Shown: positions 4,945-36,600, counted from the first letter of the stretch. The stretch is 64,000 nucleotides of DNA from Ptychomitrium polyphyllum (GCA_973851085.1 OZ316775.1:21948001-22012000), one strand, 5' to 3'. Notes: generated by a model not told the origin, from the sequence alone. Numbers and translations: made by a program.

Positions 4945-5030
4945 AGGTTTGGCACATAGAGAACTTCATCAAATTTTTTATTTCTCCTCTTAAAATACAA
5001 ATACATTGTATGCCAAAATTCCTGTTGGCC
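4945..5030 (-). mobile_element. Small degenerate Ty1/Copia pol fragment (protease/post-protease region)
   Basis: Minus strand reads RGEIKNL(frameshift)DEVLYVPNL, resembling the Copia 'VLYVP.L' motif. Very short and isolated. Confidence 0.3.
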
Positions 5031-9099: not shown

Positions 9100-11060
9100 C
9101 CTTCAAGAATATATATGCGTTCTTCAAAGTAAAGAAGACTGTCTTCTAATTTGAATTTAGCACGTTCTTCAAGAGGTTGTTGCAACAACGCTTGATTTCA
9201 ATAATAAGAGGGTCCATTATAGATGCCACGTATACCTGGTCAAGGAACAATGAATCTACCGGAGTTGAAATGGTGGTTGTGCGTATACAAAACCGTTTAA
9301 GTTTCAACAAAATTGCTTGTTGTTGATCGTTTGCTGCCTCTTCCTTGCTTTAACTTAAAGTATGATTGCCTTGACAAAGCATCTAATAATCCTTGCTATT
9401 TTTTGGATTGATATGTGATACAAGTTTTCAGCTATTTTTTGGGTTGATATGGAGTATGTCTCTATCCCAATTTGTGAAAACTTTTTAAAATGGAATGCAA
9501 TTGGATAGAGTCTTCCTTCTTCCCCCGTTTGTAACAAAACTACTCCTAATGCAAAGTCGGAAGCATCTATCTCAAGATAAAATTACTTCCAAAAGTCCGG
9601 ATGGACCAGAATAGGAGTTGTGGTAAAAGTTCACTTCAAACTTTGGAATGCATCCTCAACATCGGATCTCCATTCAAGTTTTTCCATGCATGTTAGTCGC
9701 GTGAGTGGTATAACTATTCAGGAATAGTCCTTGATGAAGATCCTATAGAAGTTTGCAAATTTAAAAAAAACATTGGACATCATGTACCAATTTTGGCCTC
9801 GTCCAATTGCTAAATGCTTTGACTTTCTTTGGATCCATCAATAGTCTTTTTTTGGAGATGATATATCCAAGGAATTCCACTTGAGGTTTGTGGAACATAC
9901 ATTTCTCCAGCTTGGCATACAAATCGGCATCTTGTAATTTTTGTAGGACTAGGTGGATATGTGGTTTATGTTCTTCTAGATTCTTTGAATAGATCAAGAT
10001 ATCATCCAGATAGCATACAATAAAATCATTGAGGCACTCCCGAAATATGACATTCATCAAGTGTTGAAAAATGGCGGGTGCATTGGTAAGTTCAAAAGGC
10101 ATGACATTGTATTCAAAATGTCCATACAAAATGCCATCTTCCATTTGTCTCCTTCTTTGATGCATATTAAATTGTAGGCTCTTCGTAAGTCTATTTTGGT
10201 ATAGATCTTTGCTTTGTTAAGTTGATCAAAAAGTCTAGATATCAGCGGCAATGGATATTAGTTCTTCACCGTCAATTTGTTGAGGTCGTGGTAATTGATA
10301 TACAATTGTAAGGATCCATCTTTCTTCTTTATAAAAAGTATTGGAGCACCAACATGAGACTTTGAATGTTGTATGAAGTTCTTGGCTATATACTCCCTCA
10401 GTGATAAAAGCTCATTTTGGGATAACTAAAAATAGGTCCAAATGGTGGCTGGGCACCATCTTGGAAGTCTATGACACAGTCGTAAGGACAATGTTTTGGT
10501 AGGGTGTTAACATTATTTTTTTCCAAAATATCATTGAATTTCTTATATTTTTATGAAAATTATTGAAGATGAAGCCACAACTTTGGACATTGGAATTGCA
10601 TACACAACAAAAGAAGTACTAGTCTTTGTTGCCCTCATAAATGCTATAGCTCTAATAAAGAGAGGCTTTTTAGATCTATAAAATCCTTTAGCTTCTTCCA
10701 TAGGCTTAATAGTTACACACTCTAATGATGGAAATTCTATTTTGCGGGATGCCCAATCTACCTGCTGGTTATACTTTTCAAGCCAAGAAAGCCCTAGAAT
10801 GATGGAACTTGATAGAGACCTAATGACATTAAATATCACTTGATTACTATAATTGTTCAATGTTATTGTTAATGGATTGGTCTTATGAATAACATCTCTA
10901 GAAGATAGCAATCAACCATCTATGACTTCTACATGGACGCGTTTGGATATTCTACTGAAAAAGAACTATGAGTTTTCATAATTTCTTTGTCAATAAAGAA
11001 AATAGAGGCTTCTAAATCTATTAGAATAAGGCTTTTGAGGTTTTGAATACCTAAGCAAAC
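9100..11060 (-). pseudogene. Gypsy Z pol remnant (protease-RT-RNase H)
   Basis: ORF fragments 10929..11135, 10543..10911 (IILGLSWLEKYN), 10057..10251, 9761..10165 ([16 protein letters not shown]...YLDDILIYS) and 9355..9537; many stops and frameshifts. Confidence 0.9.
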
Positions 11061-11690
11061 AAGTTTAATAAAACAAGAAGAAGGATGGGTTGATAAGATA
11101 AGACCTTTGTTTTCTTGTGAAGGAAGCGGATCCAACCGTACGGTCCTTACTGTGGCTGGAGGTTCTGGTTTTCCTACAAAGTGTTCAGTATTGTGGTTGT
11201 ATCTCTCATTTGATATGTACGTAGAGGTTTGTCTGGGTAGTTATCAACTGTGTGGCCAAATTTTTTAGAGTAGAAACACAACCCTTGCTGCCTTCAGCAC
11301 TTTTTTTCAGGTTGAGTAAGGGGCTTGAAGCAAATCGCATCAATTTGCATGGCTTCCACTTCCAAATACTTATTAGACGTAGACAGGGCTGTAACTATTG
11401 AAAAGTTGGTAAAAGGCCTAGGCGTAATCAAAGTGTATTTATTTTGTGGACTTAAAAATAGACATTATCGCACTTCAAAGCTTGACTGATGGCTTCATCA
11501 AGTGTTTAGAGGTCTGACATGGATAGCAATAAATCCTTAATCTTGTTGTATACTCTCCAATGAAAATGACTGATCAGCGCTTCTTCTCTTCAATTGATGT
11601 CATATGCAAGTTGTCAAAATTTTGATGCATAAATTGATATAGAATGTGGTCTTTGGCGCAAGGCACAAATCTTAGTAGTTGCAAAACAAA

Positions 11691-12826
11691 TCTTGCAAAT
11701 CTCGTAATGCACCTTAACATACAACACGCATGCCAATTTTATACACCCCACATGCACATGGTTAAGCCCCATTATTATACTCAATGTTCCAGGCTTGATT
11801 TCCAATTCTTCCTATTCATTTATCTGAAGACATCCAATTGGTTGATAGCCAATGGTTAGGTGCAGATTTCCATTCATATCCAAGGCCCTATTTGGTGTTA
11901 CTTCCATTCCATTTGGTCTAACCGCACTTAGTGGTGTCTCCCTGCCACCATTCATGAGCTCTATATGATTCCAAGATCACCCCGGGCCACCACTATGCAA
12001 GCGTGAAGTCACCACCTCAACCTAGTGATAACAAACGCACTTTTTTGAACTCACAAGTTCCTTTTGTGAAATTGGCCACCAACTAGCTCATAATGGTGTG
12101 GAAGTTTCTGTGGTGAAGTTCCAACACTAGCTCTATTAATTGAAACTTACGTTTAGTTCCTATCGAGACACTATGGGAGTGAAAAGGATGACCAATCCTT
12201 ATCTATAGTACTTTCTCTGGGATTCGGCATGCCTTATGATCCTTTATAGCTGGTTGAATCCCGTTACACCCAAAACTTTAGAAGACCATGCGATCTCTTT
12301 TGGGACTTAATTGCTAGAAGCCTCCAAAACTTCTTGCGAACCTTCAAGGAGCCATTTCTTCTATTACCGGTGTCCAAATCTATCAAGCAATCATTCTATT
12401 GTCATCTACTCTTTGCGTAGATGCAGATAATGTTTTGGTAGATATGCCTCTTCTAAGGTTAGGGACGCTTGAGGAGTCCCTCCCTCCACTAACACACTCC
12501 AGTACAGTCACAGTTTAAGCCTTCCATAGTCCAGAATAGCCTTTGGATAGCCCCGACTTTGGAATGTCATACTTTTAGCTTTGTTGTAGGATTTGAGCGA
12601 TTCTTAGCATTCTAGAATCAACTTATTGTGAGGCATTTAATTCCTATAATTTCTTCCTCGAGGCTCTTAGTCTTAATGGACAAGGATGATTTTTCTCTTT
12701 GGGGTCTTCCCACGTTAGGCCCACTTGGGTCACTGTACTATCAAAGCCACAAGTCTCAAACATTATTCTGGAGTCACCCTTGTGTCCTTAAATTTGCGGG
12801 CACTCCTTGAAGAGAGATACGCAACA
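11691..12826. mobile_element. Solo LTR V1 (~1.14 kb) inserted in the gag of Gypsy Z
   Basis: Homologous end to end with 38454-39596; ends ...GCAACA; flanks ACAAA / ATAAA (5-bp TSD with one C>T); interrupts Z gag coding. Confidence 0.8.
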
Positions 12827-12985
12827 ATAAAGCTTGTCATGGTTTCCAAATGCTTTTGCAAATGCAATTAAGAATACATTAATGTTGCTAAGTATGGGGG
12901 AATTTTTCTCAAAAAGAAGTACAAAACCAGAATAATGTATGTCTTGAGAGCAACAAGTTCATCAAACCAACATGCAAAGCGTCCA

Positions 12986-15900
12986 TGTTGTAAAAAGTGG
13001 AATATATAAAGTGATCCTAGTTGAAGTTTTTTTGTGTAGGACTAGAGCTTGATACGTCGCTAATGGTCAAAGGGGTGTCAAGGAAGAAGCCATAGAAGAT
13101 ATAGAGGCTAGGATTAAGAAAAAACAATAAGGATTTTTTATGGCTGTTAGGGTCAAGTCGGCGGCTACGGCGGCTAGGATTGGCCGCCACATGGCATCCA
13201 TTAGTAAAACAAATACAAGGCCGCCGAGTGGCACACTTTGGTGGATGATTCTAAAGTATAAGTAAAGGGGATTTAGAAATGGGAGTCATCTTGTTCCACA
13301 CTTCTCTTGTTGCAACTTTGCTCTCTCTTCTTGTTTGTTGTACTAGCTTTGTTGCATTTCTTCAATAAGTTATGGATCTACTTACACTTAATTCTACCTT
13401 TTGAAGTAGCTTGAAGTGTTTATAGTTGTTGTTATTGTGTGGAGCAAGATCACTTGGTAGTAATTGAAGATAGAGTTAGAAATGCCTAACTTTGAGGTTT
13501 TCCACATGTAGGTGCTTGGTTTGATGTTTTTCAGCTCTTATAGGATTGTGGATGTTGAAACTCCTTAGATAGTGAATTGCTTTGAGTGATGATAAGACCG
13601 TGATAGTATCTTTGTTGGAATTCAAGATCCCTAACACCAAATTATTGTGCTTGGTTTTGTTGTTTTGTAAACTCTTTGGCAAGAGTGCTTATTGAGTGGA
13701 CATAGTGAGTTGAAGGGCTTCTCTTCAGACTCATAGTTGTAAAAACTTGTGAGAAGCATAGGAGTCAAGGAAATAGTTTGTTTGGAGATACAGTTGTTAC
13801 CTCTCTTCTTAAGGCATGGCTTCAAGTGAAGGTGAAGGTTTGAGGATCATTCAAAAATTTTATGGTAAGAACTTCTACCAATGGAAGGTTATGATGGAGA
13901 TCTAATTGGCTTCTTTGGACCTTTGAAACATCATAGATGAGAGTGAGGCTGCTCCACCATTGTTGGCGGATGCAAAGGAGAAGAAGGAGTTTCAACGTCG
14001 TGAGAAGAAGGCTTTTGGCATCCTTGCCACCAACCTCGATGATGCCAACTTCGCCCATATCATTTCTTGCAAATGACTAGCAAAAGCGTGGAAGATGCTT
14101 TGCAACATCTATGAGAGCAAGAACCTCTCCAACATCATCTTCACAAGGAAGAAGTCCTTGAATTGCAAAATGGAAGAAGTACACGACCTCATGGCGCATG
14201 TGAACAAGTTGAAGGCCCTTGCAAGGCAACTTGCCATTGTGGACAAGCCATTGGAGGATTTGGATGTTGTGATTACATTGCTCATGAGCTTGCCGGAGTC
14301 TTATAGCTATCTCATAGTGGCTTTAGAATCCATTCCCATCAAGGACTTCACCATGGACTATGTGACGGCAAGATTGAGCCACGAGGAAACCAAGAGGAAG
14401 GAGAAGGCAACTTCAAGTGAGGATTCGGCCCTCTTTTTAAGGCAAGGTAAGCCCACCTATTCTAACCAATGTCCAAACCTTGGAACTTGCTTTGTGTGTG
14501 GAAAACCAGGTCAGTTTGGTCAAAATTGCTACAAGGCCAAAAGAGGAGAGAGGGAGGATGCCAACCATGTGATGGACCACCTTGGAGGTGGTGATTGTAC
14601 CTTCATGACAAGAAAAGAGGCACCTATTATGGCCCTATCCAAGTGGATAGTTGATTCGGGCGCCACAAAGCACATGAATCCTTACAAGTACTCATTTCAT
14701 ACTTACAAGACAATTCTAGCCACTAGTGTGCTAATGGGTGACAATGGCGTAGTGGAGGCCATTGAAATGGGTTCCATTGTAGTGGATGTTGTTGTAGGGG
14801 GCAAGACCAAGAGGATCACCTTCAAGGGCATGCTCCATGTGCCAAAGATGAAGTCTAACATCCTCTCAATGAGCAAACTTGTAATGGAAGGGTTTGTGGC
14901 TCATTTCAATGTAATTAGATGTGTTGTGAGTCATTGGGTAGAGGTGTTATTGCCACGGGGTTGAGGGATGGCAACTTGTACTTCATCAAGTGTAAGAAGG
15001 TGAATGGAAAGGAGGTGGCGGCCTTTGCTGAATTTCTCAAGATGAAATCAAGTTTGGCATAGGCATGGCCGCCTTGGGCACTTGAATGTAAAGGCCATGA
15101 AAGAGCTCCAAAGCATGGTAAGTGGCTTGGATTTGGGTACAACATGCGACAAGGTTAAGGAACTCGCTTATGAAGGTTGCATCCAAGGCAAGCAACAAAG
15201 GGCGTTGTTTCCAAATGGAGTGGCAACTCGGGCAAGCACATTGTTGGAAATTGTGCATTTCGATGTGTGTAGGCCTATGAAGACTCCATCCATAGGAGGC
15301 GCAAGGTATTTCCTCACCTTCATTGATGATTTTTTCGAGGAAAGTATAGGTGTTCATCCTCAAGGCCAAGAGTGAGTGCATTGTAAGGTTCAAGGAGTTC
15401 AAGGCGCATGTGGAGAAGCAATGTGAGTCCAAGATCAAGGTGTTGCGTTTGGATAATGGTGGTGAGTTCTTATCCAAGTGTTTTGATGACTTCTTGAGGA
15501 GTAAAGGCATTTCAAGGCAAACCTCTACAACAAAATGGAGTTGCTGAGAGGGCAAACCGCACCATTGTGGAGATGGCAAGGAGCATACTTCATGCTCAAT
15601 ATCTTAGGCATGAGTTGTAGGCAAAAGCAGTGGTGAATGCAGTGTACATAAGAAATAGGTGCTCCACAAGTGCCCTTGCATCCATGACCCTTGAAGAAGC
15701 TTGGAGTGATAATAAACCTTGTATTTCACACATGAGGACCTTTGGATGCCTTGCATGTGCAAAGATTCCAGATTGCATGAGGTCCAAGCTTGATGCAAAG
15801 GGTACAAAGTGTGTATTCTTTGGTTATTGTGAAGGCAGCAAAGCATATAGGCTGATGTGTGTAGAGAGCAAGAAGATCATCAAGAGTCGTGATGTTGAGT

Positions 15901-18232
15901 TCTTGGAGCACAAGAGTGCTTGTGAGCACTTGGAGAGGTGTCCAAGTGGGAGTAATGGTGTGATTGTGGATACATCCTCCATTTCAACAAAGCAAGAAAG
16001 TGGAGATGTGGATGGAGGTGAAGGAACAATGGAGGGAGAGAATAAGACGACTTCCACCCTTAAGACTAGTAGAGGAGCTTCACTAGATGATGGTGAGCAT
16101 CTTCATCAAAGTGAGGAAAATCAACCTCTAAATGAAAGAGAAGTGGATGTTTATAAGAGGAGAGGCCTGTAATGAGTGGTAGGAGGTAATCCATGAGAAA
16201 GAAGAGGCCACTTGGTGTATGGTGGAAGAACCCCATCTTCCTCCAAGTGAGTGCAGAACATGCCAATATTGACCTCTTTATTGATTCTTTAACTATGTGC
16301 AATGCCTTGAAGTCCACAGATGCCATGAAGTAGGAGAAGGCCATGGAAGAGGAGTACAAATCACTCATGGACAATGACAAATGGTACTTGACTCAACTTC
16401 CTCTACTTTGTTCTTCCATAGGTTGCAAGTGGGTATTTAGAACCAAGAGAGATGCTTTGGGTGCAATTGTGAGGCACAAGGCAAGACTAGTTGTCAAAAG
16501 ATACTCACAAGTTGCTGATATGGACTTCAATGACACATTTGCACCTGTAGCAAAGTTCACCACCATTAGAACCATCTTGGCCATAGCGGCGGCAATGGAC
16601 TTGGAGGTTCACCAGATGGATGTAAAGACTGTTTTTTTAAATGGAGACTTAGAAGAAGACATCTACATGGAGCAACCTCCAGGATTTGTACATGAAGGTT
16701 TAGAACACCTTGTTTGCAGGTTGAAAAAGGCCTTGTACGGGCTCAAGCAATCACCAAGGGCATGGTACCAACGCATTGATGCATTCTTTAGAAAGGAAAG
16801 GTTTGTGAAAAGCGAGGCGGATCTTTCCTTGTACGTGATGCAAACCATAGAGTTCTTATTGATTGTGATTTTGTATGTAGATGACCTGATCATAATGGCC
16901 AACCTTTTAGAGAAGCTAGAATGATTGAAGGCCAAATTAGAGGAGGAGTTTGAGATGAGTGATTTGGACGAGTTGCATTATTGTCTTGGAATAGATTTTG
17001 TGGGGGATTGTGCAAAGATGACCATCACCATGAGCCAAAAAATATATATTGAGGAGGTGTTGAAGCAATTCAACATGGAAGACTGCAAGGTAGTGGGAAC
17101 GCCTTTGGAGGCTAATTGGAGGTTCATGAAGCTAAGTGATTAGGAATATGCTCGAATGGAGGGCAAAATGCAAGGCATTCTATATAAGGCAGGAGTAGGG
17201 TGCTTCATATATGCTATGGTGGACACAAGGTTTGATCTTGTATTTTTGGTGAGTGTTGTGAGCCAACACACGTCCAAGGCCGGCTCCATGCACTAAGCAA
17301 CCATGAAGAGGATCATGAGGTACTTGAAGGGCACCTTGGACTTTGTATTGTGTTTGGGAGGTGATAACATTGAGTTGCAGGGATTTTGTGATGCGAATTG
17401 GATTGGAGATGCACATGATAGGCGCTTCACATTGGGGTATGTGTTCCTTGTTGGAGTGGAAGCCATCTCTTGGAACTGTAAGAGGCAACCCACAATTGCA
17501 AACTCAACTATGAAGGCGGAGCACATGGCGGCAAGTCATGGTGCTATGGAAGCAATGTAGCTAAGGCAACTCTTGGTCTTGTACAAGTGGATGCAATACC
17601 TATTATGTGTGACAATCAAGTATATCTTGCCTTTGCCAAGAATCCCAAGCATCACTCACGAACAAAAAACATCGACATCCAACATCACTTTATAAGAGAG
17701 AAGATTGAAGATGGAGTGATATATATGAGGTATTATGTATCAGAGGGCATGCTTGCTGATTTCTTAACAAAAGCATTGGTCAAAAATAGACACCACTTGT
17801 TGAAAAGGTCAATTGGATTAAAAGTCCTTTGACCAGTAGCAAAGTGGGAGTGTTGAAAATGGTGGAATATATAAAGTGATCCTAGTTGAAGTTTTCTTGT
17901 GTAGGACTAGAGTTTGATACGTTGCTAATGGTCAAAGGGGTGTCAAGAAAGAGGCCATAGAAGATGTAGAAGCTAGAATTAAGAAAAAGCAACAAGGATT
18001 TTTTATGGCTGTTAGGGTCAAGTCAGCGGTTACGGCGGCCAGGATTGGCCGCCACATGACACCCATTAGTAGAACAAATACAAGGCCGCCGAGTGGCACA
18101 CTTTGATGGATGATTCTAAAGTATAAGTAAAGGGGTTTTAGAAGTGGGAGTCATCTTGTTCCACACTTCTCTTGTTGTAACTTTGCTCTCTCTTCTTGCT
18201 TGTTGTACAAGTTTTGTTGCATTTTTTCAATA
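12986..18232 (+). mobile_element. Copia U: full-length, decayed Ty1/Copia LTR retrotransposon nested in the gag of Gypsy Z
   Basis: LTRs 12986-13367 and 17851-18232 (382 bp, ~27 mismatches by hand count). TSD GTCCA / GTCCG. PPT AAAGTGGGAG at 17841-17850. Domain order gag-ZnK-PR(WIVDSGAT)-INT-RT(LYVDD)-RH. Confidence 0.96.
13816..17832 (+). pseudogene. Copia U gag-pol polyprotein, disrupted
   Basis: ORF pieces 14095..14964 (CFVCGKPG, WIVDSGATKHM), 15082..15547 (integrase: HFDVC, LRLDNGGEF), 15630..16172, 16343..17143 (RT: HQMDVKT, LYGLKQSPRAW) and 17303..17832 (RNase H: CDNQ, KNIDIQHHF). Confidence 0.95.
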
Positions 18233-18799
18233 GTCCGTAGAATATTGTTGTGGTTGAAGCAAGGTAAAAAATTGAACTTGGTTTACAAAGTTTTGAAATT
18301 TTGAGTGCATACCATCAAACTTCTCTGGAAGGCTGATTCTTGGTTCTTTGGTTGTTGACATTTTATTCCTGGCTTGAACTTGTCTGTTTTGTTCAAAATC
18401 AAGTATAGACAATGAAGCACCTAAGTTGACTTGAGATAGCAATTGTAGTATTTCCGCTCCTTGACCATTGTGTATAATCAAATACTATACTTTGTTTTGC
18501 TTGGATAAAGTCTCGTTCTTGATTTTCAATGCTTCAGAGGCATTGATAATGGAATCTAACTTCGTTTCTTTTTAATTAGTCATATTGATTTCTTCATTCC
18601 TTGACATAGAAATAAATGGAAATAGATAAAAATTGTTAATTATGCAAGAAACCAAAGGAAATTCTAGAGGAAATATCAATCTCAAGGAGGGTAATCCGCA
18701 ACGTGTAGAGTGCTATAGTGCTTTTGAAAAAGAGGAGTGATCAGCTCTTTATCAAGAAAAACCAAACTTTGATATTATTATATGTCAGTATTGACAAAC

Positions 18800-19219
18800 T
18801 GTTATGAACAGAGGATCCATACAACAAGGCTTCAAGATTCCAGAATGTGGAACAAGATAAGTCCAAGTATATTAGAGGTATAGAGCTACAATAATGTACA
18901 AAAGACAAGGCCTGAAGGTCTGAGCTAGACTACAAGAGATGTATTGTCGAGTCTGAAGAGCTCTTTAGCCTCGACTCCTATATATACTCGAACTACAAGC
19001 TTTGGAAGCTTCTTGAGAAGCTTCATCTACATTGCTTTGTACTCAAGCAACCTTGAGTTGCTTCCTTGGAAGTTTCTTAGGCTGAAATAACTTCCTTGGA
19101 AGCTTCCTAGGCCAAGGCAACTTCCTTGGATGCTTCCTAATCCAAAGGTAACTTCCTTCGAAGCTTCCTAAATCTTCTATGAACCTTTCTTGATGCTTCT
19201 AATATGTATGTTTGTGATA
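18800..19219 (-). repeat. 5' LTR of Gypsy Z
   Basis: Minus strand T(A)TCACAAAC...TAACA; matches 8792-~9060; TATA-like TATATATAG; internal ~30-bp repeats at ~19040-19170. Confidence 0.9.
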
Positions 19220-19329
19220 ATAGCTCATAGTAAGCGTAGGTGCAGGTTGCCTTTAAGCCTATAAATAGTTGCAAGTACTGAAGTAGTTTTGTTTATGGTG
19301 CAAATGAGAATTTGATATTTTTGATTTCC

Positions 19330-21480
19330 TTCACCAGACTATTTGGAAGGTGACTACATTGAAGATTTTGAATCAGAGGTAGATATCAATTTTTACTCAA
19401 GGCAGTGGTCCATCTACTTTGTCACAAATGGCGCAAGCTACAAATGCGGCTTTCTCTATTAGAGAAGAGCCGCCAACATTTGATCTATTACAATTATTCA
19501 TTGTTCATCTAGAGGTTGAATATATTGATTTTAGGCGTAATCAAATGCAACGCATTCAAGATTTTTTTCATAAAAAGGAAGATACTCTACGTACCATGTA
19601 TGACTATTTGACACAATTTGTAGTAGAATCTAAAGAAATATTTGTTGGGAATCAACTTGTCAAGATGTTTTTGTCCAAGACTAGTAAACGGCTTTTGAAT
19701 TTGGCTACACCAAAGATCATTCTCAACTATAATAGGAAGGAAATTTTGTTGTGATAAGAGTGGTTGCTATAGGAAACGTTGGATCTTTTTGCATCTAGTT
19801 GATCAAATATTAGGTTTTTTTTATATAACTTTTATTTTATAATACAAACTACAACTTTCATTTACTTTTTAGCTACTTCTATATCTTTGGTTTTTGTTTT
19901 CCAAAATAATCCAAGTCTTTATTAACAATTCTATTTCTTCTTTCTTTTAAATCCGACTTATATATTCTTCTATATATTGAAACTCAAAGGTCCTATGTTC
20001 TTAAGATTTTAATGGGACAAGCACAAGACTTTCAAAGTACAACCTTCAAAATCTCTTATTAACAATCCAAATGGTTGTTAAGAACCATGTCCTCAAAAAG
20101 TTCACTCTTTCTATCATAGCTTCTTAACTCCCCTCCCTCTTCATTTATTTTACAATTCTATAACTTCCTTTCTACAATAAATCTATGCTTAAAAGTTTAT
20201 CTCCATACTATTTATTTTACAATAAAAATTTCATCAAAATTTCAACCTTAAAGCCCTTCCAATCATCTCCAATGGTTCAAAACATGTAGCTCCAAACTCT
20301 ACTGTAAATTGCCCTCAAATCCTGGTTGCATTTTGCCTTATATCACCTACTATAAGAATCCATTACTCTTGAAATTTCTATGCCATCATTTCTGTTGCGA
20401 GCTTTTTATAAAGCCATCACAAGCTCCTGTTAAAGTGAGAGAGGCTGAAAGATAACGAAAGGGCGGTGGTCATCCGCCTCTTATCATTCCACATCAGCTT
20501 TATCTCTCCACATCAGCCCCTATTCCTCTTTTTCAAGTCCTTATCTAATCATATCTTCAAATGGAAAACAACCCAAATCATTTTCTTTTGTTTTTCTTTA
20601 TTATTTTTCTTCTAGTTTAAACTTCTAGGAAAAAATTACAAAAGAATACAAAATCAACCCTCACAAATCATAAATAGGTAATAAAAAACTATAATAAAGG
20701 GAAGAAAGTAGAAAAAAAATTGAAATTTAACAAGAAACAACTTATGAATAATATCATTGTCGAAGTAGGATGAAATTCCAAGTCATGAATTTGTTTAATT
20801 GCATAAGTTCCAATTGCTAAACTAGTCCAAGTTCTATTCTTGTTGGATTTGTTGAATAGAACAGTAGCCCTTGACTTGCAACTGCTAACAAAAATGGCAG
20901 GCAGAAAAATACTACAGTAAATCATCCTGTTCATCCTGAGTAAAGATAAGATGCAATTTTACCTCCAAAACAAATGAAATTGTGGTTTCACTAGGACCTT
21001 TTTTAATCCAATTATTTCTTTTTCATAATACTCTTTTCCAAATACACTAATTTAAATTCCACAAAATAACAATTACTAATTAAGTTTTAAACTGTATAGT
21101 TAAATACATCGCGAGAACGCTTGCCCAAGCATTTGCTAAAGCTAAGAAATGGAATAGGGCTCTCTGCCAATATAATGCCATTGACATGGTTTTGTGGATG
21201 ATAGATATTGCTACGTTAAAGAGGGCTTTTTTAGCCACAAATAATTTGGTTGACATCTAGTCTAAGAAGAGTTTGGATTGTTGGAGGTATGATGAAGTTG
21301 GCCATATCAAGAATTATTCCAATTGTCCTAAGAAGAGACAAATTCATCTAAATGACAAGTTTAAGAAAAAAGTGGAAGTGGCTAAATTAAAAGAAAAGGC
21401 CAAAAAAAAAAATTGAAGTGTAATCATTATAGAAGGTTTAACCATAATGAGGATCATTGTTTCATTTTACATCTACAAAA
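19330..21480 (+). pseudogene. Element X gag remnant (split by solo LTR W), with two degenerate CCHC zinc knuckles
   Basis: ORF 19419..19754 ends at the W junction and resumes at ~21120 as LAQAFAKAKKWNRALCQY. Knuckle-like CWRYDEVGHIKNYS (~21279-21320) and CNHYRRFNHNEDHC (~21419-21460). Confidence 0.65.
19750..21119. mobile_element. Solo-LTR-like insertion W (~1.37 kb) in element X gag
   Basis: Starts TGTGATAAGAG and ends GAGAACG (CA>CG). Flanks TTTGT / CTTGC (5-bp TSD with two C/T differences). Non-coding and interrupts the gag frame. Confidence 0.6.
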
Positions 21481-22299
21481 GCAATCTATGTTTAAAAATG
21501 AAAAAACATTAGAAGCAAAGATTATAGACCTTAAGAAGAAATTGAAAATTGTGGCTTCATTTAGCCAAGTCAGAGAGTATTGTGCAACTTCAGGTGTTGC
21601 AACAAATAATCCTACTCCAAATTTTTATGTGTTAGGTGCATCAAGGGAGATAGTAGCGGTTGTTGCTACATGTGCCCAAATGATAATCAAGATGGTGGCA
21701 TTCACCACGCGTGAGCCACAAGAAAGGTTGCGTGTTTGCCATGCTAGGGTGTCAAATGAAATAGGCCAAATTCAATTGTCATTGTCATTTAGGCTTGCAA
21801 ATGCTGGATTTGTAGCTTAACCTTACAATCCTACTTTAACTTATGATGGAAAAATAACTTCTGGAAGATTTGCACATACCTTGGCTTATAAAGTATTGCA
21901 AATGCCTATTTTCTCCAATATTGAGATGATGGCATTAGATTTTAAGCTAGCCAACGTCTTTCAACTGGCAACCAAGTGGTGGGAAGGCAAAGTGGCAATG
22001 CCATTTTTTGAAGTGGTTCAAGCAATCACTAAGGCGTCCACAAATGAGGACTTAATTAAATTACAAGTTAAACTTCCGGTTGAAGCCATTTCTATCTTTG
22101 AAGAAGGCGCTTCATAGCAGAGTGAGTTAAAAACTACATTTGATATATCATTGGTGACTAGAGTGGCTTATTTATCTAATATTGCAGCTAGGCCTACTCG
22201 AGAGCGCTAGAATGTGCAACTAGAAGTGGTATAATTGATTAAAGATAATAATGTACTTGTTAAAAGCCGTATAGGTGGCAATGCCATTCATGTTGTACT

Positions 22300-22620
22300 A
22301 TTTTGTATTATAATAGACTATGGTGCTCAGCGGATTATGATTGATTAATAGCTTGCCTAAAAGTTTGATTTTGAGGCTATAAATCTTAAACCTTGTCATT
22401 TTATCATTGTTACCTTAGTTGGAAGTACAAAGCAAGTTACAAGTAATACATGGCAACCATTGCAGTTGATTTTCTATATTGATTATGGACCTCTTTATTC
22501 ACACTTATCTCTACAGTGTGTAGTGATTAGTGCTATCAACTATGATATTTTAATTGGTCAACAAGCACTTGATCCTCTCGGTTTTGGTTGCAACAATTGG
22601 ACCAAAGAGGCATGGAGTAG
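22300..22620 (+). pseudogene. Element X retropepsin-type aspartic protease remnant
   Basis: IIIDYGAQRIMI (degenerate D[ST]GA active site, ~22308-22345) and downstream AINYDILIGQQAL (retropepsin 'ILG' motif; ORF 22460..22687). Confidence 0.7.
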
Positions 22621-22981
22621 ACCGGGTTGGGCAACAGAAAATGGAAAAAGCAATTCATTCCTATGGCATTTGCAGCGGCCACCTTGACTATGTTAGCAGA
22701 GATTTTTTATGGATGCAATACACTGGCAATAGATTTATCTTGTGGATCTATTTTATTGGAGAGAATATTTGCATGTATGTTCAATTTTGTAGATCAACAG
22801 GATTCACTACCATTAAAAGTGCTCACACGCCATTGCAAGGATTTACTTCTATCTTGGAACACGCATACAGAGCTATCTCGGCAATGTTGGGATAGTGGAT
22901 TTTGTAAAATCTTTGGAAGTACCAGTTGCTTTATTTTTATCTACCTCTACCCACCTTATTTGTTGGCATCCATTAACAAAA

Positions 22982-23545
22982 GGTGTTATCTTCATAAAGT
23001 TATTTGCGAGCATTAGTATTGGCTTGGCAGCAATTTTGGAAGTTGGAATGAAGGTTAGGTGGTACATTCATGTGGATATTAGACTTATATCCAAGAAAAC
23101 CGCTCAATATCACCTCCAAAGTTTGTTGGCTCAATATCTTACGCAATTAATTTTTTTTGCTGTTCAAGGTTGTTTTGATCAACTTCTTCAAAATGTCATC
23201 TTAATAAATGATGAAGATTTAAGGAGGTTAGGCTACATTGACTTGCTCATTGCTAGTTGGCCTTGCCAAGGTCACTGACGTACTGGGACAGGTCAAAATT
23301 TAGATGATTCTCGATCCAGTCTTTTTGTAGTTTTGATGCGGCTCACTGAGTCATAGTTTATTCATTAATTCTAGTCATCAAGGTACATATTTGAGAATGT
23401 GCCTTGGAGGATACACAACAAAATATTGTAGAAGATGGACATTATAATTGCCAATTCCTTAATCCTCCAACCTTTGTAGATGTCGCCCCATTGGGATCTT
23501 ACACACATTGTGCTCATTGGTTTTGGACCAACTTGGCCCCATTTC
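22982..23545 (+). pseudogene. C5 DNA-cytosine methyltransferase domain (DNMT3-like motif layout) within element X pol, disrupted
   Basis: GVIFIKLFASISIG (motif I-like, from ELFxGIG); YIHVDI (II); IDLLIASWPCQGH*R (IV, catalytic PC); DSRSSLF (V); YIFENVP (VI); after a frameshift VDVAPLGSYTHCAHWFWTNL (VIII-like HRxRxFWTN). Motifs IX/X are not seen because the sequence is cut at ~23550. Confidence 0.88.
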
Positions 23546-23559
23546 ATATGATCTATCTA

Positions 23560-24233
23560 GGATCTTTTGCATTTCAACCACGTGGGCCTGGCATGGTGGA
23601 GGGTGGTTTGGAGATTATTGGAGCAACTAGGATTTAGTGGAGGGTGGTTTGGAGATTATTGCGGCAACTAGGATTTGGAGTTTGGGCCGTCAGTCCCTTA
23701 TTGTGCAGTGTAGGAGCTGAAATTTGGAGGGTTTATAGAAGAAATTATAAGCTTTTCAACAAGCCAAAGAATGCCCAATTTGAAAAAGTATAAAAGAAAT
23801 GGCGGCCGTTTGAAGTGAAGAGTGTCCAATGGTCGGCACTCTTGTAAGCCCAACTTTGGCAAGGCACATTTTGGTGGTCCCAAGTTTGATTGCTATAAAA
23901 TTCAATTGTGTTAAAGCCGCTTGAAGTCTAGTTTTTAGAAAATCTAAGATCTACAGATTTGGACCACAAAGACGGCAACGGCGGTCAATTTTAGATAATT
24001 AGTAGGTAATCTAAGAATATAGTTGGCCATATGCTATTAAATTACATAATAATTGATGCTACAACATCGATGTTGAACTAAATATAGAGAATTTTATTTA
24101 ATTAAGAAGCTGGATTCAACTAAGCAATTTTCAATTGCACTACAACACAACATAAGTAATTGCATATAGAAATAGGATTGTGTGAATTAATATTCCTTCT
24201 ATTAGGAGAGGTTTATTTGGCTCACAGCTACCA
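23560..24233 (+). mobile_element. Partial LTR Y2 (same family as Y1, opposite orientation) at the site of the RT/RNase H/integrase-core deletion of element X
   Basis: ~23680-24233 is the reverse complement of 7199-~7815 and ends ...GGCTCACAGCTACCA. A 41-bp tandem duplication lies at 23596-23677. Left boundary approximate. Confidence 0.75.
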
Positions 24234-24236
24234 TGA

Positions 24237-24892
24237 ATGGTTATAGACTATCATTCTAGCAAAGAAGTATCATTGACATCTTACAGCCCTTATTAATTGT
24301 TTTATGAAAGAGAGCATATTTTGCCTAGCTCAATACATGAGAAGCTGACTTTAATTGTGGACTTAAATGACCCTAATATTTGGGCTCAATGTCTATATAA
24401 TCAAGGGGAAGTTTTCAAAAGAACATACCTATGGCCATAGAAAATCTATCCATTGCTCATCTTTGTAATACTTTGCGTTATACTTGTATCCATAGTAGAG
24501 CTTATTGACCTTAATTGCAGTAATTCTCCAAGGAAGCTTATGTATATTTACAACATGAAGCGCCTACTATGCTTGAGGTAAAGGTGAAGCACACCATTCT
24601 ACGTATAAAAGATGTGTTGCTTAGTGGTATTTTGTTGTTGGAAAGCAAGAATGAGCTAAAGTGTCAGAAGAGTTTTAAGAAGTGTGCTCCACGACACCTT
24701 TCTATTGATGGTATTGTATATTTTAAGCAACCAGTAGTGCTATCTGGCCTTCTTTGCTTTATTTGTGGTAAGAAGTAAGAAGCAACTACTATGCTATAAT
24801 GTGATCAGTGCGAACACGATCAGCATATGGCATGTTTGAATGCACCTCTTTTAACCTTACCTTTTGGAGATTAGGTTTGCCTTCATTGTAAG
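24237..24892 (+). pseudogene. Element X integrase C-terminal region plus PHD finger, disrupted
   Basis: DYHSSKEVSLTSYSPY*LFYEREHILP (integrase 'YR.S...SPY.LL.GR' region), then MAIENLSIA...EAYVYLQ. PHD CFIC-x10-CDQC-x4-H-x2-C-...-GD*VCLHC at 24755-24889 (C4HC3, conserved Trp mutated to TAG). Confidence 0.85.
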
Positions 24893-25219
24893 AATTTTTT
24901 TAGCCTTGTTTCATCTATTAATAAAAATTGAGGATTTTATGAGAATTTGCCACATGTTGGATAATTTTTTGTTACAAATTCAAAGTTGGAGTTAGGCGTG
25001 AAGATTGACAAGGAATTCAACATTAAAACTATCAAAGGCAATTAAAGATGGAGCTCATATTGTACCCGGCCAAAGAATTCCCTAGTCATTTTTTTTATAG
25101 TTTTCTTAGCTTATTTGAATTACCATGACATCAACGTGGCATTCTTTTTTACCTATGTATGATTGTAGTACTAGTAATATGATGGAACTATATTATCAAC
25201 TTGAAGGGGGGCACTTGAG

Positions 25220-25752
25220 AATATGCTTATTATACATTCTTGTTTAGTTATTGTTTGCTACAAAATTGATTATGATTGAAATACTCAATTTGTTGCGTTA
25301 ACAATCTTTATTTTTACTACAGCTGTCACATGACGTGGCATCAAGTACCAAGCCACATCAAATGAATGTGGTATAATTGTTCTAAGAAGTATTTCATCCA
25401 TTTAGTACAAATTAGGGTTTGGAGGAGGTATTAAGTAAAGAAACTTCCTTCCCTTGGCATTCTTTGCTTAATCAAGCTTTGTGAGTGTGTTTTGAAAGAC
25501 TTGCTGTTTTAATTTTTTCTTGGAGATGATAGTTTAATCATTTAATAAAGCTTTAGGGTTTTGTCTGCTTCTTGCACTCTTGGATTCATCTTTTATGGAA
25601 TGTAAGCCGCATGACTTTGTAGTGTAGTGATTTCTTCTTTGTTCTCTTGAAATGTGATTACTATATATTCCTGTTTAATTTATATTTGCCACAAAACAAA
25701 TTATGATTGTAATACTCAATCTGTTGTATTGACATTTTTTATTAACAATACG
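25220..25752 (+). repeat. Element X right end: B1 (25220-25321) - GC - A2 (25324-25650) - B2 (25651-25752)
   Basis: B1 vs B2: gapless alignment with 20 mismatches over the first 93 nt. A2 matches A1. B1 is preceded by the polypurine tract. No B copy lies upstream of A1. Confidence 0.88.
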
Positions 25753-26808
25753 TTGTGTAATATAATACAATGATTTTATTATGCTTTCAATCCAACCATA
25801 TATTTATTTATAATTATTTTTTGGAATAACAATATAAAGAAATTTAATTTAATTCTAAAAATTTGATGATTTTTTTAAAACACATTTTGGACAATAATGA
25901 ATTCCATTCAAATAATAGTTTTTAATTAAATATTTCATTATTGCATGAATTCTTTAAAAAAGGATTGTCATAATATTTAAACTCATTAATCAATTAAAAG
26001 ACTTATAAATTCTTGTATCTATGTATATTGAAGGTATAAAAAGAAAAAAATAGTAGAAAATTAAGAAGTATACTAAGTATGTCATGTGAATATTTTTAAA
26101 TATTTAATTTTATATATAAATGTAATTTAAACATAGATTTAAGATTATTAAAGAATTTTAAATATTATACGGTTTAGCTTTTTCAAATAATATGAACCTA
26201 ATTTGGAATTCAAATAGTTTTTTTAAATTTTAATTGTGTAGCTTATTGAACTTCGAAATACTTTGTGTTTAAATGGAAAAAGAATTCAAGAATATTTCAA
26301 ATAAGAGTGAAGTCTTGTGATTTCTATATTTGAATATGTATCATTTATGACTTGTTATTATAGTTTCTATTACATCCAATAAAATAATTAATCCCTTTAC
26401 CAAAAAAACAAAACCAATATTTTTTTTTATTGTATTTTTTTTTACTAATATTTTACTTTTTAAATGATGAAATAATTTTTTTTAAATATTGTTTACGTAA
26501 TTTCTTGGATCTAATTCCATAAATATCTTTAAAATGATTTAAAAACTTTTGGAAGCATTCTATGTTTTTTTTATTATAATATAATTTCTAATTTTTAATA
26601 AATAGAATTTATTTTATAATTTTATAATTTTAAAAAATTTAATGAAATAAAATGCATTCAAGAATCTTAGTTTTATATACCTTCAAAACTTTGGAATCAC
26701 TTGGTATTTTTTAATAATTATAGAAATAATTATTTGAATTTTTAACAAGTTATCATCAGTTTTATTAATAATGTTGGTAAAAAATCAAAATACTATGATA
26801 AAAAAAAA

Positions 26809-29800: not shown

Positions 29801-32451
29801 TTTCTTGCTTGAAAAAATGAAATATGTGATTGTTGCTAAGATAAGGTTGATATTAAATCTAAACTTGTATGTGAAGACCTTCACTATTAAATTTCTAAAG
29901 AACAATGTATTATAGATAATTTTGAATTCAGCTATCTTTGTCATTTGAATAATGATAATGATGTGTAAAATTTGAAGTTATTACTTTCATTGGAAGAAAG
30001 GTGTCTTCATTTAAGATTTAAAAATCCAAACTCAATAAAAACTATGTTAATTATTTGATGTAAACAAGTTGATATTCAAAAAACATAAAGATGCTTATAT
30101 AGTAATTTGTTTTATTGTTTGTTGTTTAATTCCACATAAGATTTTAAAATAATAACTAAAAAAATATCAATTTCACTGTTTCCATTGTTATTGAGGTAGA
30201 TGTTTGGTAGTAAAAATCATAATAAATGATTTGCTTCTAATCATTCAAAATCCTATGTAGTTATGTTATAACTTAATTTCTTATTTTAGATTCTTTGATT
30301 TTAAAACAAAATCATTAAACATTGTTCATTTTGATTTAATTTTATATGTATATAGAAATAAATTTTTTTTTAATTAACTATGATTGTAAATATATCAAAT
30401 GAATCATTGTTACATTTGTTTTTTCTAAATCTCTTATCAGAAATAATAAAATAAAATCCAAATTATACGTTGTTTAACATACATGATACTTAATATCCTT
30501 GCAAAATATTACAATATAAAGGTATATATGCGAATTTCAATATTTAAATCCTAAACACACATTTTTAAAATGTAAAGTCAAGATTCATTATATGCCATAT
30601 TTGGCTATATCATTAAAATGAAAGCATCTAGTCTTTGATTTTATTAAATATGAGCTTATTTACAATATAATATAAACTTTACATAATTTTTTAGTGACAT
30701 ACAAAAGATATTATGAATATTTGAATGAACAAAAAATAAATAATATTCATGATAAATTTAAGAATGTATTTGCAAAATACAACATTCCTAATGAAATGTA
30801 TATGTTACCATATGATAAACCAACTTACAATTGCATCAAATAAAATAAAGAAATTTATAATTACCAATATATGCTTTAATTTTATAAATAATAAACTTGA
30901 AGATGTTAAGAAAAAACACTTGAATAGATATGATAATGATTACATCTTTAGACATGTTTAAAACTTGGCTTTAATGGTGCAAAATGATATATTTCTTTAA
31001 TAAGACGAAGTTCTAACACTTAAATTTGCCAAAGTGGAATTAAAAAATCCTTAAAAAATTAAATATTTTTCCATTTTTTCAATGTATTATGCAACAAGAT
31101 ACAAAATTGGATAAGCATGCAAAAATTAAAGTGATTGTTTTATGACCAAGAATAAATGTTTTAATTTGGCTTCTATCAAATTGGAAATATTTGTAACATT
31201 CATTTGGAAATAAAATAAGATGACTAAAATTTCCAAAAAATTATATAATTCATTGGTTTAAATAGTTTTGCTAGTATTAATTGAAAAAGCTATATGAGCT
31301 TTTTAAATAGATGTCAAACTTCTTATTTTATTTTAATTAAATTATTCCTCCTAATATAAATGCATTGTCTGATTGCAAAATATTGCACAAAATTTGGAAG
31401 TTGTAAAAGTCACTACTGTCACAGATATAGATAGTCTAAAGAACCTTCTAGAACCTTTTGGTATATCATAATAGACTCTTTAAAAACTTCAATGTCTCCA
31501 TAGCCGTTTCTCTTCTTTAAGAAACTTTCTAAGAAAGTTCTACAACCTTAAGAAACTTCTAGGGAAGGTTCCATATCTTTGGAAGCTTCTTAGGAAGGTT
31601 CCACCATCTTGAAAAAATTCCAAGGAAGATTCTATAGACTTCTAGAACATTTTTAAGCCTTTGTAGAAAGCTTCTTTAGAAATATCCTAAGAGATATAAA
31701 TGTCATGGTATAAGTAGAAAGCAAAACAAGATATACCTTAGTCTTTGCCAATACAAGTTGTGATTATATTGTATCTTACCTTATTCTAGTCTTTATAACA
31801 TTTCTTATTAATCATTAATTCTTTGAAAGCTAATTCTTAGAAAACACTTCGTTTTTGCTTTTTTTTTTTTAAGTCCTTAATAGTTTGACAAAGCTCTCTT
31901 CAACTTTACTAGAGCTAAGGTTCTTCAATAAAAATAATGGATTTATCCATCTTCTTTAGGATTCTATAGTTTCTTAGAGGTTGCAGATTACCTTCTTCTA
32001 AATTGACACCATAAGTTGGTTTCTTCTTTTAAAACCAAGTACAATTCCTTTTAAAGAAAGATCAATCTTTCAAAGAAATGAGAATTACCCTTCTTTGAAG
32101 ATATTCATACTTTTCTTGTCTCAGACAGTCTTAGATAATATATAATGTGCTTGGAACATCAAATAATTGGTTTACAACTATTTGCAAACCTTCAAAAATT
32201 ATTTAATACAGTTTGAGCGGAACTTGCTTGCTTCAATATACAAAAAATTTAATGCAGTGCTCTTGGCATGCCGAAGAATCTAATGGTAATATTTCTATTT
32301 TATATTAAGAAAATTATTCAATTGTAAGAGGCTAATATTGAAAGAAAAGGCTTACGATAGAATCATGTAGAACCAAAGATTAATATGTCAGACAAGTTTT
32401 ATGGATTGAAATTAAAATTGACAACTTTTGTTCAACAAATAAGGTTCTTTC

Positions 32452-32852
32452 TGTTGAAAAGGGTGGAACATATACAATGATCATAGTTGAAGTTTCCTTG
32501 TGTAGGACTATAGCTTGATAGGTTGCTAATGGTCAAAGGGGTATCAAAGAAGAGGCCATAGAGGATATGGAGGCTAAGATTAAGAAAAAACAACAAGGAT
32601 TTTATATGGCGGCTAGGGTTATGGCGGTCGTTAGGGTTAGGATGGCCGCTACGGCGGCTAGGGTTGGCCGCTACATGGCACTCATTAATGGAGGCAAATG
32701 CATGGCCGTCAAGTGGCATACTTTGATGGATGAATTTGAAGTATAAGTAAAGGGATTTTAAAAGTGGGAGTCATCTTGCTCCTTACTTCTCTTGCTACGA
32801 CTTTGCTCTCTCTTCTTGCTTGTTGTACTAGCTTTGTTGCATTTCTTCAATA
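32452..32852 (+). mobile_element. Solo LTR of the Copia U family inserted in Gypsy T gag
   Basis: Matches the U LTRs end to end (TGTTGAAAA...TTCAATA) with ~19 extra nt of a GGCGGCTAGGGT-type motif; TSD CTTTC / CTTCC. Confidence 0.93.
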
Positions 32853-33689
32853 CTTCCTTGATTTGTATCAATCTTGCTATCTTGATGGCACTATTCAAGA
32901 GGGATTTGCAGCCACTCTTCTATCAAATAATGCACTATTGTGGTTTGCATTATTAATGGAGAAGCAATCATTATTACTGAGCAACTTGTATGCTTTCATG
33001 GAAGCATTGACATAAAACTTTGGAGATATTGACTAAGAGAAGGTGGCTGAAACAAGGATTCAAAGTCTACAACAAAGATAGCACTCAATTGCAACATATA
33101 TTGCAAAATTGCATCAACTAGCTTGCGACCTTAATTGGAACAATAAATTTGGTCACAAAATTCCAATGTGACGTGAGCGAGAATATAAAGAACTTGTTAC
33201 TCACAATGCTAAGGGTTGATACATTGGATAAATTCATCAGTTAAGCAATAGCATGTGACAATAGACTATTTTAGAGGTGCTAAGAACAATGCTTGGGATA
33301 GCAACCGGTACATCAAAGTATAGCAACTACTTCTCCAAAAATATTAGAAACTTGACTACAAAAAATTTAACCTGTGCAAATTGATGCTGCCTAATTTAGA
33401 AATTTGACTCCCAAAAAAATAGATATGCGTCAAAGAAGAAATCTATATTTGTATTGTGGCAAATTTAGATATAAAGTGCGCAATTGTCAAATCAAGGGAT
33501 CTACTTTTAAGACTCAAAGCACAATGGTAGAATTGGAAAATGAAGTTGTCTAGTCATAGTAGGAACCATAAAACAAAACACCATAAAAAAATGACCATTA
33601 AGTCAATGTTTTTTATTAATTCCAACTCCTACCTTTTGTTTTATATTTATTATAAATATCAAATTGTTAGATGATGAAATAATTAGTAA

Positions 33690-36600
33690 AGCTTTTTTGG
33701 ACACTGCTGCAATCACATGCTTCATGGATAAGGATTTTGCAATTAACACCACATGCTTGTGAACAAAATTATCCCGTACATGTTGAAATTACTGATAGTC
33801 AATCTCTTGCATCTAGTAGTGTTATTGAAGAAAATTCAACCTTTGGAAGTTGTTTTAAAATACTAAGCATTTAAAATTGTCTTCAACATCATGCATTGCC
33901 AAACAAATTCTATTGTCTTGGGCTTTCTTTGGTTTGAATTATATAATCCAAGACATTGTTTAGCACTCATGGAATTTAGTCTGAAGGAAAAGACGTTAAG
34001 GTACAAGAAATCTTGGACCATCATTTATTAGACCTAAAGCATTCATGAAAGCGGCAAAGCATAAATCAATCTATGCAATTTATGCTACGCCAATGTCCAG
34101 CTCTATACCAGAGACTAATCATTGCATACTTCATCAACACCAAGATTATAAAGACATTTTTGAGAAGAAGAAAGCAGACATATTACCAAAGCATCGGCCT
34201 TATGTTTGTGCCATTGAGTTGCAAGAAGAAGCCCAACCACCTTCAAAACCTATCTATAATCTATCACAAATCGAATTAACTGCCCTGAGAGAATATAAGG
34301 ATGGAAATCATGGAAAGGGCTTCATCCAACATTCTAAATTACTTGTTGGAGCATTGATTTTATTTGTAAAGAAAAAAGATGGATCATTACGTATGTGTGT
34401 GGACTATTTAGACCTCAATAAAGTGACCAAGAAGAATCGCTATCCATTACCATTAATCTTAGGACTTCTAAAGCAACTCAACCAGGCAAAGATATTTACT
34501 AAGATTGATCTTAGAAGAGCCTACAATCTCGTACGAATCAAAGAAGGAGTTGAATGGAAGACACCCTTTCAATCTAAATATGGTCATTTTGAATATAATG
34601 TCATGCCTTTTAGCCTTATTAATGCCCTTGCAGTCTCTCAACATATAATGAATGATTCCTTCCATGAACATATGGACGATTTTGTAATCATTTATTTTTA
34701 TGACAATTTAATATATTCAAAGGATGAACAAGACCACAAATGTCATGTACAACTGGTCTTAGAAAAACTATGCTAGCAAAGTTTATATGTCAAATTAGAA
34801 AAGTGCCTTTTCTATTATTCATTGGTTGAAAATGTAGACTACATTATTTCCAAAGGAGGAATCCATATGGATAAGAAGATAATAAGCACTATTATGAAGT
34901 AGAATACGCCAAGATCAATTTAAGATGTTTAATGCTTCTTATAATTTGTAACCTTCTATAGAATATTCATCAAGGACTGTTCCAAGATTGCGACACAATT
35001 GAAACAACCTACAGGGAAGCAAAAATTCACTTGGAATGAAGAGGTGAAAAAAACGTTTCAAGGTCTTAAGAAGTCATTCACGTTGGCTCCAATCTTTATT
35101 CATTCAACTTTGTCAAAGCTATTATATTTGGAAGCAAACGCCTGAGATTTTGCATTTGAATCAATATTCTTATAATATAATGAAGATTGGAAATACATCC
35201 TATTGCATTTTATTCAAAGAAATTTTCAGCTGTAAAGATCAACTATGATATAAATGATAAGGAATTACTTGCAATTGTGGATAGATTTGAAGAATGGCAA
35301 CACTTGTTGGAAGGAGCTCAACATACCATCACAATATACAAAGGCCACAAAAATTTGGAGTACTTCATGAGTGTGCGCATTTTGAAGCGCTGTCAATCAA
35401 TGTGGAATATTTGGCTTTGCAAATTGGCTGTGATATTACCTATCATCTTAATAGCTTACATGGTAAGTCAAGTGCCTTATCTTGTAGATTGTCTTTAGTT
35501 CTTCAACTTGGAGAAGATGTTTTAAATCAATTAAGGATTATTTTATTAAAGCCACAAAATCTTCAATTGAAAACAACATTTATTACCACAACATCCCATT
35601 TCAACAAAATTTGAAAAGCTTTAAAGAATCATATCTTTGTTTCAAATATGAGGAGGCGCTTCTAAAACAATGGAAGTACTTCAAATAGTGATGAGTACTT
35701 TGAATTCCAAGAATACCTACTTTAATATAAAAAATACCTATGCGGGCACTCATGAAGCACTCCAAGTTCTTGTGACGTGCTTGAAGGATCTTCAATTGCA
35801 TATGTACCTATCCAAGAATACCTACTTCTAGGTTGTATGCAATTGAAGATCCTTCAAGCACGTCATAATTTTCTAGTGGATGGGCATTGTAGATTCAATA
35901 AAACAATGGAGTTAATTGTTTGAGACTATTAGTGGCCACAAATGTCAAAATATGTAAAGGACTCTGTTTGATCATGCGACATTTGCGTAAGGGCCAAGGT
36001 ACTAAGACACCAATCTCATAGTTTCTTTCATTTGCTTCCACTTCCATAAAATCCATGGTTATCATTATCAATGGATTTCATTACAAACTTCCCAAATTGC
36101 AATTTAAAAAGTTCTATCTTAGTAGCCGTGGATTGATTTACAAAGATGGCGTATTTCATTCCATATAAGAAGATGGTAACAAGAGAAAAAATTGCCAAAT
36201 TGTTCCTTGATCACATCTACCGCACAAATGGACTACCAAATGATATTATATCCAATCAAGGATTACAATTCATTTCCAACTTTTGGAAGGCTCTATAATA
36301 GCTGTTGCGTCTAAAGATCAACCTTTCTTTAGCATACCATCTATAGACTAATGGTCAAACCAAACGTGTGAATCAACTTTCAAAGTAGTATCTTTACTGC
36401 AACATGAACTACTAGCAAGACAACTAGATGAACATCTTACCTTTGGCGGAGTTTGCTTATAATATTACGATGCATTCTTCAACAACTCAAAATCCATTCT
36501 TTACAAACTATAGCCATCATCCTCAAGCAAATCCATTTCAACTGAAGCATGTTGGAAGTCCTGCAATAGAGGATTTTGCAGTTCAACTTGCTAAAATCCA

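Follow-up and report, generated by a model that had tools for sequence, protein, structure and literature searches.

The window (the whole analysed stretch of 64,000 nucleotides from Ptychomitrium polyphyllum, OZ316775.1:21948001–22012000) holds, from about 5974 to 25752, an element interrupted by several nested insertions, here called element X, which, judging by its sequence, is almost certainly a decayed Ty3/Gypsy retrotransposon carrying a DNMT3-like C5-methyltransferase (MTase). Its recognizable coding parts lie on the plus strand. The gag region is in two pieces: a 5' part at 19295–19739, which starts with MVQMR and matches the gag of the related loci L001 and L034, and a 3' part at 21096–22300, found by tblastn with an intact ORF1 and containing two zinc-knuckle remnants (21279 and 21419). 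The remnant of an aspartic protease (PR) follows at 22301–22600, with IIDYGAQ at 22310 in the place of the DSGAQ of intact relatives; this remnant has no Pfam match, and the protease of the relatives matches PF13650/PF13975 weakly. Next come the MTase remnant (22982–23597), a foreign LTR fragment on the minus strand (23598–24226), and the C-terminal remnant of an integrase (INT; 24228–24751), 50–56% identical to residues 814–1042 of the L034 pol and ending in the remnant of a PHD finger (24752–24889; PF00628, E = 1.5e-6). Element X is colinear with the intact loci from gag (19295–19739, and again from 21096) through the protease to position 23597 in the MTase, and colinearity resumes at 24228. 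This copy lacks the intervening stretch of about 3 kb, which comprises MTase motifs IX–X, the end of ORF1 with the ORF1/pol junction, the reverse transcriptase (RT), the RNase H (RH), and the greater part of the integrase; roughly 630 nt of foreign LTR stand in its place. This copy is dead, broken by stops, frameshifts, and deletions.

The foreign LTR fragment is an inverted copy of 7206–7873, and ATGGTAG precedes both starts, possibly reflecting a target preference or a rearrangement. Also nested in element X is a minus-strand Gypsy element (8791–19075, RT at 9721–10535; LTR parts at 8816–9067 and 18824–19075, 88.5% alike), within which a younger copia element with gag and RT is inserted (12986–18232; LTRs 93% alike); a third copy of the copia LTR lies at 32452–32852. 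The gag of element X is split by about 1.36 kb of inserted DNA that begins with TG and ends in CA (about 19745–21107), probably a solo LTR.

The terminal repeats of element X are split, in the order A1...B1-A2-B2; this one copy shows no pair of complete, identical LTRs at its flanks. The 5' terminal repeat A1 (5974–6302) is 86.8% identical to 25326–25649 over 325 columns, and toward the other end a purine tract (25203–25211) is followed by B1 (25212–25321, ending in CA), A2 (25324–25649), and B2 (25644–25752), all on the plus strand. B2 is identical to B1 in 86 of 111 columns, with an alignment score of 111 where the best of 418 other windows reached 47; upstream of A1, no copy of B was found. 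TTGT stands both before A1 (5970–5973) and after B2 (25753–25756) as a candidate 4-bp target duplication, the terminal dinucleotides being decayed at both outer ends and the right end being placed by alignment. At the B1/A2 border (25319–25326), the window, L001, and L034 have in common the palindrome ACAGCTGT (CA-GC-TG), which, we infer, looks like a junction of two integrase ends; alternatively, B may have been duplicated locally, giving the split layout seen in the one copy. At what we take to be the moss rate, the identity of the A repeats suggests an age of several million years. Programs that recognize LTR elements by a pair of full LTRs may overlook this family or misplace its limits. 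Within the accessible literature, we did not find split repeats of the form A...B-A-B with a candidate 4-bp duplication described, and KnitGypsy-Dnmt3, a Gypsy element of Klebsormidium nitens (de Mendoza et al. 2018, PMC5890265), has according to its legend DIRS-like terminal repeats, non-canonical as are those of the window. Membership of the element in DIRS was nonetheless rejected: the ORFs of L001 and L034 carry an rve integrase and have no match to a DIRS/Ngaro (tyrosine) recombinase family.

The initial annotation had placed an intronless MTase with motifs I, II, IV, V, VI, and VIII inside the element, and this description holds for most of its parts. Motifs I to VI lie in one frame up to 23404, with four stops within 22982–23404: a mutated motif I-like KLFASISIG (22997–23023), motif II YIHVD (23063–23077), motif IV WPCQG (23258–23272), motif V (23300–23326), and motif VI YIFENV (23384–23401), after which comes a frameshift. 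Motif VIII (23506–23532) had been described as HRxRxFWxN; the relatives do show HRxRxxWxN, but the window copy itself reads a decayed HCAHWFWTN. The remnant has lost about 160 nt near 23550 and is truncated before motifs IX–X, which are absent from it. Read through with X at the stops, the frame matches PF00145 with 23 bits (E = 6.4e-5), above the curated cut-off of 22, while single stop-free ORFs of the remnant have no Pfam match, PF00145 included. The X-read frame is also 57–61% identical to two intact proteins (E = 1e-43 to 1e-46; 616 candidates); the remnant used alone as a PDB query gave no significant match. The absence of introns follows from the colinearity of the DNA with intact elements.

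Intact relatives place this domain firmly in a retroelement. A search with an intact MTase scored 7,989 candidates and yielded 43 long proteins; of 2,783 cluster representatives (E up to 0.001), the best 150 were examined. Among the matches listed, protease, RT, RH, or integrase accompanies the MTase in 130 of 195 MTase-bearing rows, most of the remaining rows being short, and in 110 of the 113 such rows of at least 800 aa, as expected if the homologues share the retroelement context claimed at the outset. The loci L001 and L034 are near-complete and encode gag-PR-MTase, a TAG, and RT-RH-INT-PHD in the same frame, with Pfam matches in the order PF00078, PF17917, PF17919, PF17921, and PF00665, that is, a Ty3/Gypsy RT/RH and a DDE integrase; PF00145 scores 45–46 bits in intact relatives. 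This order, together with the colinear remnants in the window, bears out the identification as a Gypsy element with a DNMT3-like MTase. The window region is a nest of insertions, and one might therefore suspect that a host DNMT3 fragment was captured by, or nested in, a single decayed element by chance, yet the probability of this is negligible: L001, L002, and L034 refute it, the DNA is colinear across protease and MTase with three other loci, the long relatives are retroelement polyproteins in the proportion just given among the matches listed, and the dN/dS of the MTase is about 0.1. L034 (positions 1–9285) is a fully intact element of the moss type, circularly assembled, inside a cyanobacterial genome assembly, and is most likely plant contamination there.

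The named relatives among the matches listed are 1 from Sphagnum fallax, 12 from Marchantia polymorpha, 1 from Closterium, and 1 from Monoraphidium. The Marchantia gene models Mp4g09160, Mp8g17980, and Mp6g11220 are among them; some bryophyte gene models for a “DNA methyltransferase” are thus retrotransposon ORFs.

Two domain orders occur among the matches listed: PR-MTase-RT-RH-INT(-PHD) and RT-RH-MTase-INT-PHD. The MTase tree (FastTree) was built from 123 of the 195 rows (matches of at least 280 aa, with an assignable architecture in all but 6 hand-picked rows), L001, the window copy, and, as outgroup, 8 of 30 distant phage MTases from a scan of viral contigs. In this tree the window MTase, whose row fills 43% of the alignment columns, falls within a 14-row group that includes the Sphagnum protein (support 100), itself inside a 30-row group with Marchantia (support 96), and the RT-RH-MTase-INT-PHD order forms one 77-row group (branch support 98), all among the matches listed. 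The RT tree likewise gathers the RT-RH-MTase-INT-PHD order (42 rows, support 100) and leaves the PR-MTase-RT order unresolved. The members of this sister lineage are among proteins P0036–P0198 and include Monoraphidium neglectum. P0043, P0044, and P0168 form a small separate clade in which the proteins end 17 residues past MTase motif X; here, too, an MTase may close ORF1.

The enzyme of the intact relatives is complete, with motifs I–X including the catalytic Cys, ENV, and RxR, and it is under purifying selection: dN/dS is 0.09–0.10 in the two unsaturated pairs of three, near the protease value and somewhat above that of RT. It is closest to DNMT3 and its motif order is unrearranged; sequence ranking against the PDB puts DNMT3C/B/A first (E about 5e-10), before DRM (2e-5) and M.HhaI (1e-3); DNMT3 also ranks first with an AlphaFold model of low confidence (pLDDT 56). 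With phage MTases as the outgroup of the MTase tree, the DNMT3 label rests on the PDB ranking. A DRM-type enzyme was rejected, given the unrearranged motif order and the ranking of DNMT3 above DRM. One could still suppose that the domain methylates RNA, or that it is a non-methylating, DNA-binding or anti-silencing decoy. In agreement with this, KnitGypsy-Dnmt3 gave no methylation in yeast, a result its authors call inconclusive in the accessible text (PMC5890265), and motif IV has EC rather than PC in 51 of 124 domains among the matches listed. The Cys is retained in the EC domains, however, and 122 of the 124 full-length domains (matches listed; alignment columns) preserve Cys (IV), Glu (VI, of ENV), and Arg (VIII), while DNMT3-class DNA enzymes rank first in the PDB comparison, and we hold a role of this kind to be very doubtful. 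Related Dnmt3 domains on Symbiodinium retrotransposons methylate CG de novo in yeast, according to the same text (PMC5890265), and the moss host enzyme DNMT3b is described as a de novo CG/CHH enzyme (PMC6453930, accessible text).

The base composition of L001, L034, and the window copy carries no signature of self-methylation. CpG observed/expected is 0.70–0.78 in L001 and L034, and in the window copy decay by context is 0.40 for CG, 0.36 for CHG, and 0.29 for CHH. Compared with L002, 216 of 367 differences of the window copy are C>T or G>A, in all three contexts, an excess that fits ordinary host methylation; the decay pattern as a sign of self-methylation was rejected, CG, CHG, and CHH being struck alike.

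The place where the reading frame of the enzyme stops departs from the initial annotation, which had proposed a single pol polyprotein, gag-PR-MTase-RT-RH-INT-PHD. The order is right, but relatives of the moss type close ORF1 with the MTase, at an in-frame TAG. In all three moss-type DNA loci that cover the junction (L003 does not reach it, and in the window copy it is deleted), gag-PR-MTase closes at this TAG with pol, or the start of it, in frame directly behind, and the MTase thus belongs to the Gag side and not simply to pol. The expected PR-MTase-RT/INT in one ORF does occur in distant rows such as P0029, the MTase and RT sharing an ORF in at least eight more distant rows, whereas the moss-type loci are split. 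The proteins agree with the DNA: among the matches listed, RT is absent from the same protein in 27 of the 29 other rows of the 30-row clade, and 26 of the 29 end 81–192 aa past motif X. Two Marchantia gene models of this clade join MTase to RT and skip part of the linker; seen as gene models, they look spliced around a stop.

The bases after the TAG are CAATCA, CAGTTA, and CAATCA in the three loci, each of which reads CARYYA, a match with a chance of about 0.0015 per locus on base composition. The hexamer is kept although synonymous divergence between the junction loci approaches saturation (dS from 0.8 to above 1.4), and the TCA to TTA change behind the TAG alters the amino acid and keeps CARYYA. 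The three loci, being related, do not count as independent origins of the signal. The RNA folds behind the TAG share no common structure across the three loci. The TAG-CARYYA stop is likely read through to make pol. The junction may be likened to the env of SIRE1, which is reached by stop-codon readthrough. CARYYA after UAG is the readthrough signal of tobacco mosaic virus (TMV), where it is needed for readthrough, and the Type I UAG-CARYYA of TMV/BNYVV has the same stop and hexamer in frame (PMC2754532, accessible text); here it lies between gag-PR-MTase and RT-RH-INT-PHD, with readthrough predicted from the nucleotides. That the stop is real and not read through, pol coming from a spliced or separate RNA or from reinitiation, has a precedent of sorts in Tca2, whose gag and pol are separated by a stop with an unclear bypass (PMC2194720, accessible text), but seems improbable to us: the frame is preserved, CARYYA is present in all three loci at saturated synonymous divergence, and the three loci share no start codon behind the stop, the first Met of L034 lying about 117 codons in, inside RT.

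Contigs of the host runs also touch this region. On the MTase-to-RT stretch of L002, two runs from one sample yielded 185 and 216 of them, some reaching from the tail of the MTase into the start of RT. The sample may be the source of the window itself, so these runs are not independent; run X3 yielded none. The junction, a stretch of 91 bases, is covered in part or whole by five contigs. One runs across the stop, with no difference listed at 2078–2088, and another starts two bases before it; a third is aligned only from the stop's second base onward and may not contain the stop, and the remaining two begin beyond it.

If the stop is leaky, the enzyme would be abundant in the particle and the cDNA methylated before integration. 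We consider it probable that gag-PR-MTase ends at a leaky TAG-CARYYA, with the enzyme packed in Gag-like amounts and likely methylating new cDNA before integration; methylation of the cDNA inside the particle by the element's own MTase is, taken by itself, moderately probable. ORF1 (gag-PR-MTase) would be made in excess of pol and would build the particle, while readthrough of the TAG by ribosomes would yield RT, RNase H, and the integrase-PHD. The protease would then free the MTase inside the particle, where it would meet the naked new cDNA and, as a de novo enzyme of the DNMT3 type, could methylate it before integration, so that the methylated copy would be quiet and host-like on arrival. 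The integrase PHD may read the histone H3 tail and likely guides integration: its closest solved matches are CHD4, PHF12, UHRF1, KDM5 PHD1, and PHF21A, and we take the CHD4, PHF12, UHRF1, and KDM5-type matches to be mostly readers of unmodified H3 tails. Chromoviruses carry a chromodomain where the integrase PHD sits. Bulk production of the MTase is not needed family-wide, because the distant rows and the 77-row sister lineage keep the MTase inside pol. The lack of methylation by KnitGypsy-Dnmt3, the closest described enzyme, in yeast and the unremarkable base composition also weigh against methylation of the cDNA.

The presence of the PHD on the integrase in both architectures, and the position of the MTase directly before the integrase in the sister lineage, could also be read differently, with the enzyme acting at or after integration, as a readthrough product or in the pre-integration complex, tethered by the PHD and methylating the insertion or its flanks. 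CHD4, UHRF1, KDM5 PHD1, and PHF21A, all among the closest solved matches, are presumably readers of unmethylated H3K4, the mark state that the ADD domain of DNMT3 reads. In the moss type, however, the stop lies between the MTase and the PHD, the distance from one to the other is about 1,100 residues, and the protease would likely cut them apart, which makes action at this later step unlikely. More tentatively, we picture an ancient Gypsy lineage, widespread in green plants (mosses, liverworts, zygnematophytes, and chlorophytes), that pairs an active DNMT3 as writer with a PHD as reader. Its land-plant branch would use a leaky stop of viral type, carry MTase at Gag level in its particles, integrate pre-methylated copies, and follow an integrase-based cycle with split repeats that differs from the canonical LTR cycle.

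Retrotransposons of this kind were already described in 2018; the junction, the split repeats, and the domain order of the sister lineage appear to be new within the accessible literature. As described in the accessible text, KnitGypsy-Dnmt3 shares the Gypsy domain set, an intronless and unrearranged Dnmt3-like domain, and purifying selection (PMC5890265). It has the domain in the Pol ORF, while the moss-type relatives have it at the end of ORF1 before TAG-CARYYA; its host is a charophyte, here a land plant; and, comparing by description, its main text makes no mention of a PHD, which the moss type has. SymbioDIRS-Dnmt3 and SymbioLINE-Dnmt, from the same source, are C5-methyltransferases on retrotransposons as well, with a tyrosine recombinase or of the LINE type, and the EpiLTRs of Cymbomonas and Euglena carry a C5-methyltransferase that is a sister of DNMT4, with DAM and a chromodomain (bioRxiv 10.64898/2026.05.21.726589, accessible text). 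A “streptophyte” Gypsy-DNMT3 is cited in the accessible parts of that preprint and of PMC12344493, where the LTR elements are given as Copia. The PHD-bearing Gypsy of Chlamydomonas (Gypsy-7a_cRei) is a Gypsy polyprotein with a PHD and no MTase in its domain legend (10.1101/2022.06.16.496473). Full-text searches found no description of an MTase-Gypsy in land plants, of the TAG-CARYYA junction, or of the RT-RH-MTase-INT-PHD order, though subscription papers, figures, Repbase, and bioRxiv supplements may hold bryophyte sequences; the text of the REXdb paper makes no mention of methyltransferase, methylase, PHD, or readthrough, and that of the Physcomitrium TE paper none of methyltransferase. The role of transposon-encoded DNA methyltransferases has been a question from 2018 on, and the difficulty of working with the known hosts is part of the reason; the relatives in Marchantia and mosses put it into tractable plants.

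Outside element X, the window has a tandem array of a 22-base repeat at 3968–4301 and a further Gypsy element at 31431–38350 (RT at 34000) with LTR copies, of which an inverted solo copy lies at 59051–59589. A host choline transporter-like gene, which marks the host as a true moss, occupies about 52000–57300; in one frame with exons, identity is 90% to a protein of Ceratodon purpureus and 69–72% to proteins of Physcomitrium and Sphagnum.
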